Assembly (NCBI GenBank): GCA_021788015.1
Contig: JAJYLD010000003.1
Location: 33,772 to 97,771, forward strand
Source: a bacterium
GTDB taxonomy: Bacteria; Patescibacteriota; Patescibacteriia; Patescibacteriales; JAKAJF01
Direction of reading: 5' to 3'
DNA: 64,000 nt
In this document: positions 4,071 through 55,417 of the stretch, in pieces
Layout of the letters: every line of letters begins with the position of its first letter
Numbering within the stretch: the first letter of the stretch is position 1
The notes under the pieces: model-generated
Told to the model about the DNA's origin: nothing
Seen by the model: only the letters and a program-made list of their open reading frames with translations
Databases searched by the model: none
Translations under genes and position numbers: made by a program

Positions 4071-4174
4071 AATTTTTAATTTTATAATTTTTAATTTTTA
4101 AATAATTTTTAATATCCAAATTTTAAAAATTAGAATATTATTTACAAAATTATAAAATTAAAAATTAAAATTTT
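4071..4174. repeat. long AT-only hairpin (atpE/atpF gap)
   Basis: aatttttaattttataatttttaattttta (4071-4100) pairs with aaaattataaaattaaaaattaaaatttt (4146-4174). Confidence 0.65.
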
Positions 4175-23804: not shown

Positions 23805-24019
23805 GTAAATAAATACAAAAGTCTGCCCGCCAATCGCTACGCTTAAGGCGTTAGCAGGCAAAAGTCAAAATATGATAACTAATTTCTAAATTATGATTCC
23901 TAATAAAATTTCTAACATTTAATTTCTAATTTTTATTGGAAATTAAAAATTATAGTTTAGACATTCTGGTTTTTTACTTTGGCAAAATATTTTTTTAAAA
24001 TTTCGCCATTTTTACAAAA

Positions 24020-29830: not shown

Positions 29831-30012
29831 TCAAAACACCACGGGGTTCGGGGGCGGAATTGAGTCCCGCCGACGGCGGGAAGAGAACCTTAATATAAAT
29901 CAATGTGATAGCGAATTGGAGCCCCCAAAACTTTCCCGCCTGCATCGCTATGCGAAGCATTGCGGGCAGGTTGCCTACTTTTTGGTTACAAAAAGTAACT
30001 CCTAGCGAAGCG
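29831..30012 (+). repeat. three-copy structured element, copy 1 (candidate ncRNA), with nested 36-nt hairpin insert
   Basis: blocks GGGGGCGGAATTGAG, CAATGTGATAGCGAATTGGAGCCCCC, hairpin tactttttg-gtta-caaaaagta, CCTAGCGAAGCG; TTGACA-17-TATTAT at 29776-29804 upstream. Confidence 0.55.
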
Positions 30013-38102: not shown

Positions 38103-38192
38103 AATTTAAAAAAACACAAAAATTGTGCGTTAATTTATCAGTGTAAATATTATAAAATAAATTAGAACGAAAATCAACCCTTAAAAAATTCC

Positions 38193-38286
38193 AATTTTTA
38201 ATTTTCAAACAATGCTTAAATTTTTTAATTTTTAAAATTTGAGAATTGAAAACTGTTTAAAAATTTAAAATTGAAAATTAAAAATT
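38193..38286. repeat. long AT-rich hairpin in hpf/secA gap
   Basis: aatttttaattttcaa (38193-38208) is the exact reverse complement of ttgaaaattaaaaatt (38271-38286). Confidence 0.7.
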
Positions 38287-52772: not shown

Positions 52773-53680
52773 GCGATTGTTTTTTTAATCCCCTCTTCGA
52801 GAGAAAATTCGGGCTTCCAATTCAGGATTTCCTTCGCCTTCCTTGCGTCAAGAACGCTCCTCAGGACTTCGCCCGGGCGCTCCGGCGCGAAATCGTAATC
52901 GAATTTTTCTCCGGTCGCTTTTTCAATGTCGCTTATGATATCAAGGACGCTCACTTCCTTGCCAAGGCCGATGTTCAAAGTTCCGTTATAGCCGCCTTTC
53001 ATGGCTCCGAGACAGGCGTTTATAACGTCGCCGACATACACGTAATCTCTCGTCTGCTTGCCGTCGCCGTAAACGACGCTTTGTTTGCCGTTTAAAAAAT
53101 TATGCAAAAAGATGGTAATTACTCCGCATTCGCCGCCCCTATATTGTCTTGGACCGTAGATATTGGCCAGGCGCAGGACCGTGTAGTCGAGTCCATGGAT
53201 ATTATGAAACATTTCGAGATATTTTTCGGCCGCGAATTTATGGATGGCATAAGGCGACATGGGTTTTATCAAGGTATCTTCCGTCGCCGGCCCGTCCACG
53301 CTTCCGTAGATAGCGCCGCCGGTCGAGACGAAAATAACTTTTTTTACTTTCGTATCCGCGCTCGCTTTAAAAATATTGTAACTGCCGACGGCGTTCACTT
53401 TATTATCAAACATCGGGTCTTCGACGGATTTGATGACATCGATTTGCGCGGCCAGATGAAAAACATAATCGAATTTTTCTTTTTCAAAAATTTCTTGCAT
53501 TTTTTCCGCATCGCAAACATCCGCTTCAAAAAACTTCGCCTTTGAATTTATATATTCTCTTTTGCCGGTCGAGAGATTGTCGATGACGACGACATCATGG
53601 CCTTCGTCTATAAGCCTGTCGACAAGATTTGAACCGATAAATCCGGCACCGCCGGTAACAAGTATTTTATTTCTTTTCAT
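52745..53680 (-). CDS. NAD-dependent epimerase/dehydratase (GalE-like)
   Basis: ILVTGGAGFIGSNL Rossmann motif, YAIHK (YxxxK); start trimmed to MKRNKILVTGG. Confidence 0.9.
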   Translation of the reverse strand: MKRNKILVTGGAGFIGSNLVDRLIDEGHDVVVIDNLSTGKREYINSKAKFFEADVCDAEKMQEIFEKEKFDYVFHLAAQIDVIKSVEDPMFDNKVNAVGSYNIFKASADTKVKKVIFVSTGGAIYGSVDGPATEDTLIKPMSPYAIHKFAAEKYLEMFHNIHGLDYTVLRLANIYGPRQYRGGECGVITIFLHNFLNGKQSVVYGDGKQTRDYVYVGDVINACLGAMKGGYNGTLNIGLGKEVSVLDIISDIEKATGEKFDYDFAPERPGEVLRSVLDARKAKEILNWKPEFSLEEGIKKTIAWTKEPTNF

Positions 53681-54015
53681 ATAAATATGATTAAAATTTA
53701 GAACCGACCCGCCCGCCACGCGAGCCCGTGAGTCTGCTTTTTAAATATCTTCGGCCAAAACCGGTTTTAAAATATTTTTCTCTTTTTATTGCCGCTTCTT
53801 TTAAAAGACATGCTTCATAATAAATTAATCTTAACGGTCGGCGATCGCGAGTTGAGGGTACTTTACCTTTATTATGTTTTATAAATCTCGTCTTTAAATC
53901 ATCTGTCCAGCCGACATATAATTTTTTATCGTTTAAACTTTCTAAAACGTAAGTATAAAACATAAGCTCGCGGGCGATGCGGGCGGGTAAATCCGGCACC
54001 GCCGGTAACAAGTAT
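53666..54015 (-). mobile_element. 350-bp insertion carrying GIY-YIG gene, bounded by 28-nt perfect direct repeat
   Basis: taaatccggcaccgccggtaacaagtat at 53638-53665 and 53988-54015; inner imperfect inverted repeats acccgcccgc (53706-) / gcgggcgggt (-53988). Confidence 0.6.
53691..53963 (-). CDS. GIY-YIG nuclease domain protein (short, UPF0213-like)
   Basis: FYTYVLES...KLYVGWTDDLKTRFIKHN ... REKYFK; start trimmed to MFYTYVL. Confidence 0.85.
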   Translation of the reverse strand: MFYTYVLESLNDKKLYVGWTDDLKTRFIKHNKGKVPSTRDRRPLRLIYYEACLLKEAAIKREKYFKTGFGRRYLKSRLTGSRGGRVGSKF

Positions 54016-54125
54016 GTTCATAATTTCTAATTTTTAATTTTGTAATTTTTAAATAATAAACCAAATTTGATTACGACGAATAAACTCAAGTCTCAAAACG
54101 CAAAACTCAAAACCAAAGCTTAAAA

Positions 54126-54413
54126 CTAAAATCTTTTATTCTTAAGGGTAAGAAGGCTGGCGCCTAGCATTTTTGAGAGTTCTTCAAGCTCTTGCAATAA
54201 TTTATTAATTTTAATTTTATCGGTATTTGTCGCGTCTCTTAAAAGCCCAAACCAATATTTGCTTTCATTCGCAGATTTTAATGCTATTTCGTAAAATTTT
54301 ATAAAATCTTTTTTCGATGAAGACGATTTTGCTTCAACGATATTCGCTCCGATTGAGGTTACTGACCTTAACAATTGATCCGCTATTATCCAAAAAATTC
54401 TTTTATTCGGCAA
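54126..54413 (-). CDS. four-helix-bundle protein (23S rRNA intervening-sequence protein family), N-terminus apparently frameshifted
   Basis: QLLRSVTSIGANIVEAKSSSSKKDFIKFYEIALKSANESKYW; family-like N-terminal 28 codons lie in another frame at 54403-54489. Confidence 0.75.
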   Translation of the reverse strand: MPNKRIFWIIADQLLRSVTSIGANIVEAKSSSSKKDFIKFYEIALKSANESKYWFGLLRDATNTDKIKINKLLQELEELSKMLGASLLTLKNKRF

Positions 54414-54520
54414 CGATTATCGAAAAATAATAGGCTCTTATTCTTATGTCAGTTTTGGGGTTTTGCGTTGCAGCTTTGAGATTTGACATTTGCGTTTTGA
54501 GATATGTTATTTTTTTATTT

Positions 54521-55417
54521 TCAAAATCCATCGGTTATTGAAAATTGGTTATTGGCATGTTGGTTATTGGTTATTTCTCCATATACTTCTTCCAGTAACT
54601 CCAAATCCTTATTGCTCTTTTTCAGTAAATCGAGATTTTTGTTCCGCAAGCTTTCAAAAAATTTTTCTCCGAGTTCGTCGCCGACGATTTCTTTGTATAA
54701 ATTAAAAAAAGCTTCGTAATCTTTTATGAAACAATGGCCGCCCGCTCCCCTGCCCGATTGATGAATCGGTTCCATGTGGCTTTTCCCGATACGGGCATCG
54801 GCGGCGATCATGTCGCGGATATTTTTCCAATCGCAGCCCAATTCTTCGGCCAAGTCATGAAGCAAGTTCGCGTAAACCACTTTTGTGTACAAAAAAACAT
54901 TCGAGCCGTATTTTATCAGTTCCGCTTCTTTGGCCGGACAAATCAATTTAAACGGCGATTCGGGCAAAACATCCATGACTTCCTCCGCCTTTTTTCGATA
55001 TTCTTCGTTGTCGACGGGAATGCCGATTATGTTTCGCGAGGGATGGGCGGCGTCGTAAGCGGCCGTCGCTTCGACTAAGAACTCCGGAGAATGCATGACA
55101 AAAATTTCCGGATTTTCTTTTTGGAATTTTTCCGTCGTTCCGGGCAGAATCGTCGATTTGATCACGGCCGTTTTCCCCTTGCCGATATTTTTTAACGCAT
55201 CCTTTACATAAGAATCATTAAAAACATTTTTAATCGTCGGCGTGGGTACGGCGATAAAAACGATATCGCAATCTTTTATTTTTTCTTTGTTTCGGACATA
55301 CGGCTCTTCGAGTGAATAACGCGTAACATCAAAACCGCGATTCTCGAAATCGTCGGCGTAATTTTTTCCTATCCAACCCTGGCCGATGAAACCGATTTTT
55401 AACTTGGAATTAGCCAT
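54521..55417 (-). CDS. UDP-glucose/GDP-mannose dehydrogenase family protein, short form (298 aa)
   Basis: IGFIGQGWIG, IAVPTPT, IKSTILPGTT, SPEFL.E..A, catalytic-Cys motif GAGGHCFIKD; lacks usual C-terminal domain. Confidence 0.68.
   Translation of the reverse strand: MANSKLKIGFIGQGWIGKNYADDFENRGFDVTRYSLEEPYVRNKEKIKDCDIVFIAVPTPTIKNVFNDSYVKDALKNIGKGKTAVIKSTILPGTTEKFQKENPEIFVMHSPEFLVEATAAYDAAHPSRNIIGIPVDNEEYRKKAEEVMDVLPESPFKLICPAKEAELIKYGSNVFLYTKVVYANLLHDLAEELGCDWKNIRDMIAADARIGKSHMEPIHQSGRGAGGHCFIKDYEAFFNLYKEIVGDELGEKFFESLRNKNLDLLKKSNKDLELLEEVYGEITNNQHANNQFSITDGF

Follow-up and report, generated by a model that had tools for sequence, protein, structure and literature searches.

Why should the beginning of an epimerase gene occur twice in a bacterial chromosome, with the gene for a small GIY-YIG nuclease lodged between the two copies? 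The arrangement lies on the minus strand of a 64,000-nucleotide stretch (hereafter the window) of contig JAJYLD010000003.1, from a member of the Patescibacteria, and the host gene is a short-chain dehydrogenase/reductase (SDR) of the epimerase/dehydratase type. Comparison with related loci suggests that the nuclease gene and the GC-rich arms around it form a site-specific cassette of about 280 bp, which is or was mobile and selfish and which persists since the duplicated 5' segment leaves a complete gene; we give this reading a probability of about 0.8. The window would be one member of a site-specific mobile element family of Patescibacteria. An earlier note on this DNA had described a perfect 28-nt duplication, and our repeat search returned it at the same coordinates: the string TAAATCCGGCACCGCCGGTAACAAGTAT occurs in the window as exactly two copies (positions of all features are collected in Table 1), whose starts are 350 nt apart and which the repeat finder extended to 31 nt with one mismatch. 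No further copy of the 28-mer was found within the 64-kb window with up to three mismatches allowed, and a match appeared in 0 of 100 dinucleotide-preserving shuffles. The list of open reading frames (ORFs) agreed with the note in that the distal copy follows ATGAAC and opens an ORF of 31 codons and the proximal copy follows a separate start and opens the 311-aa epimerase, and the 90-aa gene between them was recognized by the GIY-YIG profile of Pfam with 55.1 bits.

The note had also proposed a search for the same cassette at other Rossmann-fold genes. With the nuclease as the query, more than 1300 relatives were retrieved, and the DNA of relatives was fetched from genomes and metagenomes. Among the best 120 nuclease matches, 26 had been called as fused ORFs of the form M..(I/L)(L/V)(V/I)TGGAGF-TRPHRQRA-nuclease. 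At least 19 distinct loci from Patescibacteria carried the cassette at an identical SDR junction, ..GGN-TTY-A|CCCGCCCGC (the subfamily with the tail ..AGSRGGRVG, comprising the window, L004-L009, L084, L085, L087-L089, L091-L093, L098, L145, L164 and L167). In all 19, a short leader ending in ..GGN-TTY-A is followed by CCCGCCCGC.., the nuclease gene and ..GCGGGCGGGT, the ATG that opens the SDR gene stands 14-41 nt after the element, and the SDR gene is complete wherever the contig was readable. In the window, the insertion point falls between the codons GGA-TTT-A and TC-GGT-TC (GF|IGS) in a truncated repetition of the SDR gene's 5' end. The host SDRs, which include GalE-like, GDP-sugar-type, RfbB-like, UDP-glucuronate-epimerase-like and other types, are mostly only 22-45% identical to each other, whereas the nucleases are 64-83% identical to that of the window, suggesting that the element moved among genes which share little beyond the DNA of the glycine motif. 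This recurrence at the same junction of different SDR genes supports the proposal of a selfish cassette at DNA coding for GxxGxxG, and the complete gene start that follows in each of the 19 loci supports the survival of the host gene through duplication.

Sister elements with the same layout (a copy of part of the target's 5' end, then the hairpin, the nuclease gene and the intact target) were found at two other kinds of gene. In L086 and L168-L173, a GT4 glycosyltransferase gene lies intact downstream of a tail-bearing element, and a truncated copy of its 5' end precedes the element, stopping after the ..P(M/L)(V/I)GG codons of the N-terminal ..P-x-x-GG loop; the junction reads GGCGG|CCCGCCCGC. 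Note that L168-L173 are six contigs with an identical nuclease, and that their breakpoints 400-600 nt downstream of the element were dropped as a signal of the element since they represent the ordinary mosaicism of polysaccharide loci. The tail-less relatives of 78 aa are mostly associated with tRNA genes: 86 of 134 distinct loci lie no more than 130 nt upstream of a tRNA gene on the same strand, with 12 amino-acid identities represented. A recognizable partial 5' copy of the tRNA, in some cases together with as much as 35 nt of 5' flank, was present upstream in 33 of the 86, and these copies break at nucleotides 12-14 or 18-22 (D-arm/D-loop), abutting the same CCCGCCCGC hairpin. L014, for example, reads 5' flank and tRNA nucleotides 1-19, hairpin, tRNA nucleotides 20-29, nuclease, and then 5' flank and intact tRNA-Asn. 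Without exception the targets are conserved sequences situated no more than a few dozen nucleotides into the gene; only there could a gene be restored by a short duplication, which would account for the choice of 5'-proximal targets.

As the source is a metagenome-assembled genome (MAG), the layout might be suspected to be a misassembly or a chimera of two strains, a suspicion fed by two other contigs that stop 30-230 nt upstream of the cassette. However, the locus is 100% identical, with both repeat copies, in three assemblies (NCBI GCA_027328865.1 contig DAHWTJ010000003.1, an ENA MEGAHIT k141 contig and a Logan contig of SRR13170411), which may or may not come from independent samples. These came from different assemblers, agreed base for base and were built with k-mers longer than the 28-nt repeat, and dozens of unrelated contigs show the same architecture. 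We regard the probability of an artefact as negligible.

Comparison of occupied and unoccupied loci gave further indications of mobility. The syntenic orthologs of the L165 host SDR in L175-L178 (83-85% aa identity) have a single 5' end and no cassette, and a gene for a 23S rRNA intervening-sequence protein (IVP) lies upstream instead. L174, whose SDR is 97% identical to the L165 host, matches L165 over 238 nt of upstream flank and leader with 98.7% identity and then passes through an unoccupied junction, ..GCCGGGTTTA|TCGGTTCTC, with neither hairpin nor nuclease, which is suggestive of an empty site. Between L088 and L091 the identity is about 99.5% over a stretch that begins some 50 nt before the end of the nuclease ORF, takes in the arm, the spacer and the proximal copy, and reaches over 330 nt into the host gene, whereas their upstream parts are only about 70-75% identical, with different nuclease bodies, flanks and leaders (MRVLITGGAGF versus MAKCLVTGGAGF); this mosaic suggests that the conserved arm region is a recombination breakpoint. 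At L167:1590-1680, a solo remnant of the 3' arm with the same spacer and leader precedes a full element, an array to be expected if a second insertion had entered the intact target downstream or if the repeats had undergone unequal exchange. Direct repeats of 60-127 nt, with hairpin and target fragments on both sides of the nuclease gene, were also observed in L013, L017, L033 and L141, and together with L167 these form tandem or nested arrays.

The G+C-rich imperfect inverted repeats by which the earlier note had seen the cassette framed proved real, but its position 53706 was off by one base: the two segments lie at 53707-53721 and 53974-53988 (15 nt, 87% complementary). The arm consensus is CCCGCCCGC..GCGAGC // GCTCGC..GCGGGCGGG, with inverted termini of 10 + 7 bp. 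In 15 aligned elements the 5' arm was nearly invariant, and third codon positions were invariant at 6 of 6 sites in the 3' arm compared with 0 of 77 in the core of the ORF (Fisher test, p = 2.6e-9), indicating that the arms are constrained as nucleic acid. They pair as a long-range stem in the minimum free energy (MFE) fold of the window transcript (z = -3.3), and the two arms joined by a tetraloop gave -42.6 kcal/mol. Because the arms hardly vary, covariation is silent on whether the constrained form is RNA, single-stranded DNA or a cruciform. The 20-nt 3' arm was absent from viral contigs.

Inverted termini with a direct repeat on both sides, and a solo hairpin of the same family at 29935-29970 of the window, could also be read as a transposon or a miniature inverted-repeat transposable element, in which the arms are terminal inverted repeats, the 28-nt repeat is a target-site duplication, and the GIY-YIG gene is cargo moved by a transposase encoded elsewhere. 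However, 41 nt separate the proximal repeat copy from the 3' arm (the spacers of relatives measure 14-41 nt), the length of the repeat ranges from 28 to 56 nt between loci, and the same codon boundary serves as the insertion point in unrelated genes. The only consistently associated ORF is the GIY-YIG gene, inside or beside whose frame the arms lie, and no transposase domain was found. This explanation is very improbable in our judgement, and the variable length and the distance from the 3' arm indicate that the 28-nt repeat is unlike a classical target-site duplication.

The hairpin would also bring the halves of the target together, as might be expected if the insertion were removed after transcription or translation, that is, if it were a group I or group II intron, a segment excised and ligated in the manner of an intervening sequence (IVS), or an intein, with the distal start giving the enzyme. 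The ..VGS.. after the 3' arm resembles the IGS of the motif, and the genomes of the Candidate Phyla Radiation (CPR) are rich in introns and IVSs (PMC11270868, PMC13011429). On the other hand, the only Rfam match with E <= 1 in 53300-54900 was to a snoRNA and attributable to chance, the element of about 280 nt is almost all ORF and has no room for a ribozyme core, and no intein motifs were found in it. The upstream copy, moreover, reaches a stop codon after about 11 nt of the right-hand target, and every locus has a complete downstream ORF with a start of its own, so that an intervening sequence of any of these kinds is highly unlikely.

The nuclease matched Pfam PF01541 over residues 1-71 (E = 9.4e-15; cut-off, 22.6 bits). 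The residues Y17, Y28, G30, R38, H42, E62 and E74, to which we assign catalytic roles by presumed analogy with I-TevI, were invariant in 35 relatives and are present in the window protein. Among solved structures, the best sequence matches were 1zg2 (E = 1.4e-9) and 1ywl (1e-6), both from the uncharacterized UPF0213 family, followed by SLX1 (0.03-0.3). An AlphaFold model (pLDDT 81.7) showed a compact beta-beta-alpha-beta-alpha-alpha core with low-confidence or disordered termini encoded by the arms. Foldseek searches with this model returned GIY-YIG domains only (1zg2, 2e-4; SLX1 and HIGLE, 1e-3 to 1e-2); the closest were UPF0213 BH0048, SLX1 and the plant resolvase HIGLE (probability 1.0, TM 0.52-0.60), and the catalytic domain of I-TevI came out at an E of about 0.3. 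The predicted protein is a minimal UPF0213/SLX1-like domain and not an I-TevI-like one. Neither the profile search nor the model revealed any domain beyond the catalytic core, including a C-terminal DNA-binding domain or a zinc-finger domain of the SLX1 type. The part of the earlier proposal in which the nuclease itself targets the conserved motif is weakened accordingly: a sequence-reading recognition of the 28-nt site is unproven for an SLX1/UPF0213-like protein of this build.

Two states of expression were distinguished among the SDR loci. The leader is fused in frame with the nuclease in L006-L009, L089, L092, L093 and L167, with W, F, I or L at the position of the nuclease start. In the window, L005, L084, L085, L087, L088 and L164, the leader is out of frame or stopped, and the nuclease gene begins with an ATG of its own directly behind the 5' arm. 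The recurrence of the own-ATG state suggests that the frameshift in the window is a regular alternative state and not simply decay. The window leader ORF overlaps the nuclease ATG by 36 nt, and ribosomes on the leader would open the arm stem beside that ATG. The note had taken the distal copy for an orphaned start, but it is more than an orphan: roughly half of the relatives have it in frame with the nuclease, as whose translation start it serves, and its differences from the proximal copy are mostly synonymous (70:18). The cassettes in L004 (no start) and in L098 and L145 (interrupted) look degenerate.

The strong RNA stem of the arms around the nuclease ORF, the overlap of the leader with the nuclease start, the intact target retained beside the nuclease gene and the wide occurrence of the arrangement would also suit a domesticated module, no longer mobile, in which the leader, hairpin and nuclease are inherited vertically and regulate, or process the RNA of, polysaccharide and tRNA operons. 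This is hard to reconcile with near-identical nucleases in unrelated SDR, GT4 and tRNA genes, with cassette-free syntenic orthologs, with young perfect repeats alongside decayed ones, and with the mosaics, tandem remnants and degenerate copies described above. We consider domestication a slim chance, if marginally less so than a transposon.

How the two copies of the gene start arose is less clear than the mobility of the cassette. The right edge of the repeat always coincides with the 5'-arm junction, and its left edge varies between loci. The perfect repeat measures 56 nt in L092, where it includes 21 nt of the 5' untranslated region (UTR), and 42 nt in L086 of the GT4 class, where it includes the ATG, as does the repeat of about 37 nt in L009; the perfect repeats of the tRNA class measure 20-46 nt and include host-specific 5' flank. 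Over the last 28 nt, the identity of the two copies runs from 28/28 (window and L092) through 26/28 (L009) down to 17/28. On average a leader matches its own downstream copy at 21.6 of 28 positions and those of other loci at 19.6 (permutation test, p = 0.00015), and quirks of the motif are shared within loci (GGAGY/GGAGY in L005, GGTGF/GGTGF in L009 and TGSGGF/TGGSGF in L006). On the right side, TYGGYTC follows the 3' arm in all elements, and it matches its own host (5.1 of 9) no better than other hosts (5.2 of 9), which marks it as borne by the element. A local duplication of the right flank as a general rule was rejected on these values, and TYGGYTC is probably the relic of an ancestral right half-site.

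Perfect repeats with host-specific flank inside them, especially those of a dozen tRNA species, where a carried 5' half would make the tRNA chimeric, argue for a local origin of the repeat in young insertions. The duplication may have been made at insertion, e.g. by a variable offset between the breaks in the two DNA strands, or through repair synthesis re-using the 5' side; we put this at somewhat short of an even chance. The alternative, close to what the earlier note called a replacement 5' end carried by the cassette, is that the mobile unit consists of the nuclease, the spacer and the 5' end of a donor gene, that repair copies this unit after a break at the motif, and that the distal copy is therefore native and the proximal start foreign. 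Such a unit would be the mirror image of the mobile endonuclease ORFs (mORFs) of fungal mitochondria, which bring a foreign C-terminus and displace the native one (PMC3630166). Several observations agree with it: in most loci the copies differ mainly at synonymous sites and resemble their own partners no more than those of other loci, TYGGYTC moves with the element, and in the window the proximal start codons (MKRNK) lie outside the repeat and a genome-typical motif abuts the distal ATG. Other observations do not. The repeats of L092, L086 and the dozen tRNA species include host 5'UTR or flank and could not be derived from a donor unless the donor locus was the recipient locus; a carried 5' half would leave a chimeric, non-functional tRNA, so that the model fails for the tRNA class; and L088 and L091 share the spacer, proximal copy and gene but have different nucleases. 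In Mantel tests, the relatedness of the nucleases was correlated with the similarity of the leaders (rho = 0.48, p = 0.002) at least as well as with that of the proximal copies (rho = 0.36, p = 0.016). As a sign of carried DNA, the similarity between the spacers of the window and its closest relative fell short of significance (p of about 0.1), and elsewhere the spacer comparison was confounded by AT-rich composition. Over all classes, a carried end is therefore rather unlikely, although for the SDR hosts it is a serious alternative, and in the window itself, with its MKRNK codons outside the repeat, a carried or filler start may still apply.

The native start of the window epimerase bears on the same question. 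The earlier note had set uninterrupted alleles beginning MNILVTGGAGF against ones beginning MKRNKILVTGG as the deciding comparison; the closest homolog is 65% identical, and the homologs, whose N-termini mostly read M-x-(x)-ILVTGG, fit neither choice decisively. The related operon in L168 was too distant (39% identity) to serve as a guide to the native start. Eight copies of the AT-rich motif AAAATTAAAAATTAGAAATT are present in the window, where 0.29 would be expected, most of them in front of gene starts on the minus strand; the motif probably represents a promoter or a signal of the 5'UTR that is typical of these bacteria. Its position directly before the distal ATG suggests that the distal copy holds the native upstream signals and favours the distal ATG as the native start. 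The proximal ATGAAAAGAAATAAA may be carried DNA, filler DNA or itself the native start.

Several points weigh against a selfish cassette with a locally made repeat. The evidence for mobility is comparative throughout, and the nuclease has no DNA-binding domain able to read a 28-nt site. The target is still present in unbroken form 350 nt downstream of the nuclease gene, whereas a homing insertion normally destroys its site. A near-identical empty allele of the window's own epimerase was not found (the 65% identical homolog being the closest), and the empty junction of L174 is followed by a scaffold gap of 10 N in a contig of 3x coverage, where a strain chimera is possible. The excess of own-copy over cross-locus similarity loses its significance (p = 0.08) when the three near-perfect loci are excluded, and, given this weak excess and the synonymous bias of the copy differences, an mORF-like import of one copy fits equally as well as local duplication followed by exchange of elements. 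Finally, a purely local duplication leaves the proximal ATGAAAAGAAATAAA of the window unexplained, the start codons being outside the repeat.

For the selfish cassette, we propose the following course of events. Insertion would be accompanied by local duplication of the 5' segment of the target, with the right edge fixed at the insertion point and the left edge variable. The upstream copy would keep the promoter, 5'UTR and start codon of the host and so drive the nuclease, which would be made as an N-terminal fusion or, in the window, through translation of the leader across the nuclease's own ATG, which would melt the arm stem. The invariant arms would be the substrate of a structure-specific nuclease and/or a portable homology for recombination and spread. 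In a later step, which we find plausible at rather less than even odds, the leader and nuclease would be exchanged between occupied loci via the invariant arms; such an exchange would explain the synonymous-type divergence and the mosaic of L088 and L091. That the nuclease recognizes a structure, its own hairpin or cruciform, instead of a long sequence is a more tentative suggestion. Equally tentative is the thought that these cassettes form an undescribed class of bacterial mobile element, in which an SLX1-like nuclease acts on its own hairpin, insertion at tRNA, SDR and GT4 genes duplicates the 5' side, and the orphan copy supplies promoter, ribosome entry and N-terminus, by a chemistry distinct from that of homing endonucleases and transposases.

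SLX1, a partner of SLX4 in repair that bears a C-terminal zinc-finger domain, and HIGLE are structure-specific nucleases for branched DNA. Together with UPF0213 they are the closest to the window nuclease by sequence and fold, and an activity on branched DNA would suit hairpin or cruciform ends. To our knowledge, UPF0213 (YhbQ-like) proteins have no established function, and no member has been described as a mobile element with a defined insertion site. Phage homing, as far as we know, leaves neither target duplications nor hairpin termini. Free-standing GIY-YIG homing genes are known from phage T4, including SegB in the tRNA cluster (PMC2330249). SegA-G of the T-even phages and I-TevI share with the window cassette the GIY-YIG domain and the habit of selfish genes that sit next to or inside conserved genes, tRNA regions among them, and spread by break-induced repair; they differ in having C-terminal DNA-binding domains, and I-TevI ranks far below SLX1 and UPF0213 in the fold search. 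Elements that integrate at tRNA genes through an attP/attB core likewise use a conserved target, are flanked by direct repeats of it and leave the gene functional. They rely on a tyrosine or serine integrase, usually enter the 3' end of the tRNA gene and have a fixed core, in contrast to the absence of an integrase, the 5' end and the variable repeat found here. IVSs are defined by their excision from rRNA by RNase III. The 23S rRNA IVS/IVP cassettes resemble ours as small ORFs within inverted repeats in CPR genomes, but encode a different protein family, and no target duplication was seen with them. In CPR genomes, GIY-YIG ORFs occur in non-intron insertions of rRNA genes (PMC11270868), and a study of group I introns in CPR tRNA genes does not mention GIY-YIG (PMC13011429).

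By analogy, the closest described system appears to be the mORFs of fungal mitochondria, free-standing LAGLIDADG or GIY-YIG ORFs in atp6, atp9, cox2 and nad3 (Glomus), often in phase, with a duplicated C-terminal end of the gene (PMC3630166); the atp6 mORF of Allomyces macrogynus is described there at second hand. In the window and in all 19 SDR loci, as in mORFs, an endonuclease ORF sits in a gene whose duplicated terminus keeps the gene complete and leaves a displaced partial copy. The differences are that the 3' end is duplicated in mORFs and the 5' end here, that mORFs are organellar and encode full-size homing enzymes whereas the present elements lie in bacterial chromosomes and encode a catalytic domain of 78-90 aa, and that the bounds formed by an invariant GC hairpin and the tRNA targets belong to the Patescibacteria element only. 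The foreign origin of one copy has been demonstrated for mORFs, whereas the own-versus-cross comparison, the Mantel and spacer tests and the 70:18 ratio do not discriminate here. A free-standing selfish endonuclease with a partial duplication of its host gene is thus a known theme, and there is a genuine possibility that the mechanism is new in kind. We found no published description of hairpin-bounded UPF0213-type cassettes at the 5' ends of SDR, GT4 or tRNA genes; coverage of the literature was incomplete, and this is absence of evidence only.

If this reading is correct, a successful family of selfish nucleases that spares its host gene by means of a second gene start exists even in genomes as small as those of Patescibacteria, as a bacterial, mirror-imaged counterpart of fungal mitochondrial mORFs. 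The reading would explain hundreds of proteins annotated as 'GIY-YIG nuclease family protein' beside tRNA genes as well as ORFs that start with a Rossmann motif and continue as a nuclease, and would provide a testable functional hypothesis for the uncharacterized UPF0213/YhbQ-type domain. The invariant hairpin would act as a recombination breakpoint between genomes, and gene callers and curators of MAGs should expect duplicated gene starts and truncated tRNA fragments at cassette sites.

Table 1. Features of the window locus, in the order of the coding strand, and examples of sister cassettes
Feature	Position	Strand	Basis
AT-rich upstream motif AAAATTAAAAATTAGAAATT	54022..54041	(-)	abuts distal ATG
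Leader ORF, 31 codons, MNILVTGGAGFTRPHRPRAYVLYLRFRKFKR (MNILVTGGAGF+TRPHRPRA...)	53926..54021	(-)	ORF list
Distal 28-nt repeat copy (ILVTGGAGF and first base of next codon)	53988..54015	(-)	repeat search
5' GC-rich arm ACCCGCCCGCATCGCCCGCGAGC	53966..53988	(-)	inverted repeat, alignment of 15 elements, MFE fold
GIY-YIG nuclease gene, 90 aa, own ATG, stop included	53691..53963	(-)	Pfam PF01541, PDB matches, model
3' GC-rich arm GGGCTCGCGTGGCGGGCGGGT	53707..53727	(-)	inverted repeat; invariant third codon positions
CGGTTC(T)AAAT, putative right-half target relic (I-G-S-N codons) directly after 3' arm	53696..53706	(-)	host match
AT-rich 30-nt spacer, including ATGAAAAGAAATAAA, functional epimerase start	53666..53695	(-)	sequence, ORF list
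Proximal 28-nt repeat copy, preceded by ATGAAAAGAAATAAA, part of intact epimerase ORF	53638..53665	(-)	repeat search
Intact SDR epimerase/dehydratase (host gene), 311 aa	52745..53680	(-)	Pfam Epimerase, E 2.6e-64
GT4-class cassettes	L086:1948-2360; L168:2420-2830 (also L169-L173)		
tRNA-class cassettes, clade L010-L163, examples	L014:2364-2840; L041:2418-2810; L073:2423-2810; L066:1748-2230		

Read along the coding strand, the window leader is a truncated copy of the 5' part of the SDR gene that enters the 5' arm out of frame with the nuclease. The final base of the distal repeat copy is the junction with the element, the A of ACCC being shared with the 5' arm, and only TT separates this arm from the nuclease ATG. 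The last 12 or so codons of the nuclease (..TGSRGGRVGSKF) come from the 3' arm and the target relic CGGTTC(T)AAAT. After the arm, TCGGTTC-T-AAAT equals the TCGGTTCAAAT that follows the proximal copy in the host gene, save for one extra T, suggesting that the upstream partial copy of the gene runs about 11 nt past the cassette. The epimerase ATG, which opens the codons MKRNK, is at 53680-53678, and the proximal copy continues into the unbroken target GGATTTA|TCGGTTC, then TCGGTTCAAATCTT and the rest of the epimerase. The host gene belongs to a minus-strand polysaccharide-biosynthesis operon, in the order UDP-sugar dehydrogenase-like, epimerase, GtrA, flippase, methyltransferases and glycosyltransferases. 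The G+C content of the window is 41.6%. No tRNA genes, GIY-YIG paralogs or further SDR targets were found in the window.

Some neighbouring features deserve mention. Immediately upstream of the leader lies a gene for a 23S rRNA IVP four-helix bundle (ORF 54126-54413, minus strand) in a cassette spanning 54091-54502, bracketed by a 21-nt inverted repeat (54091-54111 and 54482-54502, 90% complementary); its product lacks about 25 N-terminal residues of the family profile. IVP genes occupy the same place, 100-130 nt upstream of the SDR start, in unrelated Patescibacteria (L175:1005-1373, L176:787-1152), and this may be a second selfish-looking cassette that favours the position upstream of SDR starts. 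In two of the three assemblies, a contig end falls within or beside the IVP cassette: L002 and L003 start at about 54231 and 54051 of the window, respectively. These breaks may reflect strain variation or repeats. Further upstream, a UDP-glucose/GDP-mannose dehydrogenase-like gene (54521-55417, minus strand; 298 aa) has the N-terminal and central domains and no C-terminal domain, and a 266-aa version in the related L168 operon points to either a short subfamily or truncation.

Sites of the AAAATTAAAAATTAGAAATT motif were located at 4079-4098, 4154-4173, 23907-23926, 38186-38205, 38260-38286, 54022-54041 and 54199-54218, with an inverted pair at 4071-4173, and a near-identical AT-rich motif precedes the SDR start in L175-L177. 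Among the epimerase homologs P0145, P0152, P0162, P0163, P0200, P0197 and P0173, some have N-terminal extensions of about 115-125 aa unrelated to GIY-YIG, P0197 begins with 'RRPARLALRSMAGE', which resembles a translated GC hairpin, and P0173 begins with MSKILYMSKILITGG, which resembles a small tandem duplication of the 5' end; these odd N-termini may be footprints of related events at the same end of the gene. GIY-YIG genes with slightly different hairpins (GCCCGCCCGCC..GGCGGGCGGGG) occur away from SDR, GT4 and tRNA genes in L040/L150, L051, L055, L125 and L039. The solo GC-rich hairpin of the window, CCTGCCCGCAATGCTTCGCATAGCGATGCAGGCGGG, is intergenic on the minus strand and has no nuclease gene nearby, and a second small GC palindrome, CCCGCCGTCGGCGGG, lies 60 nt downstream of it at about 29866-29880.

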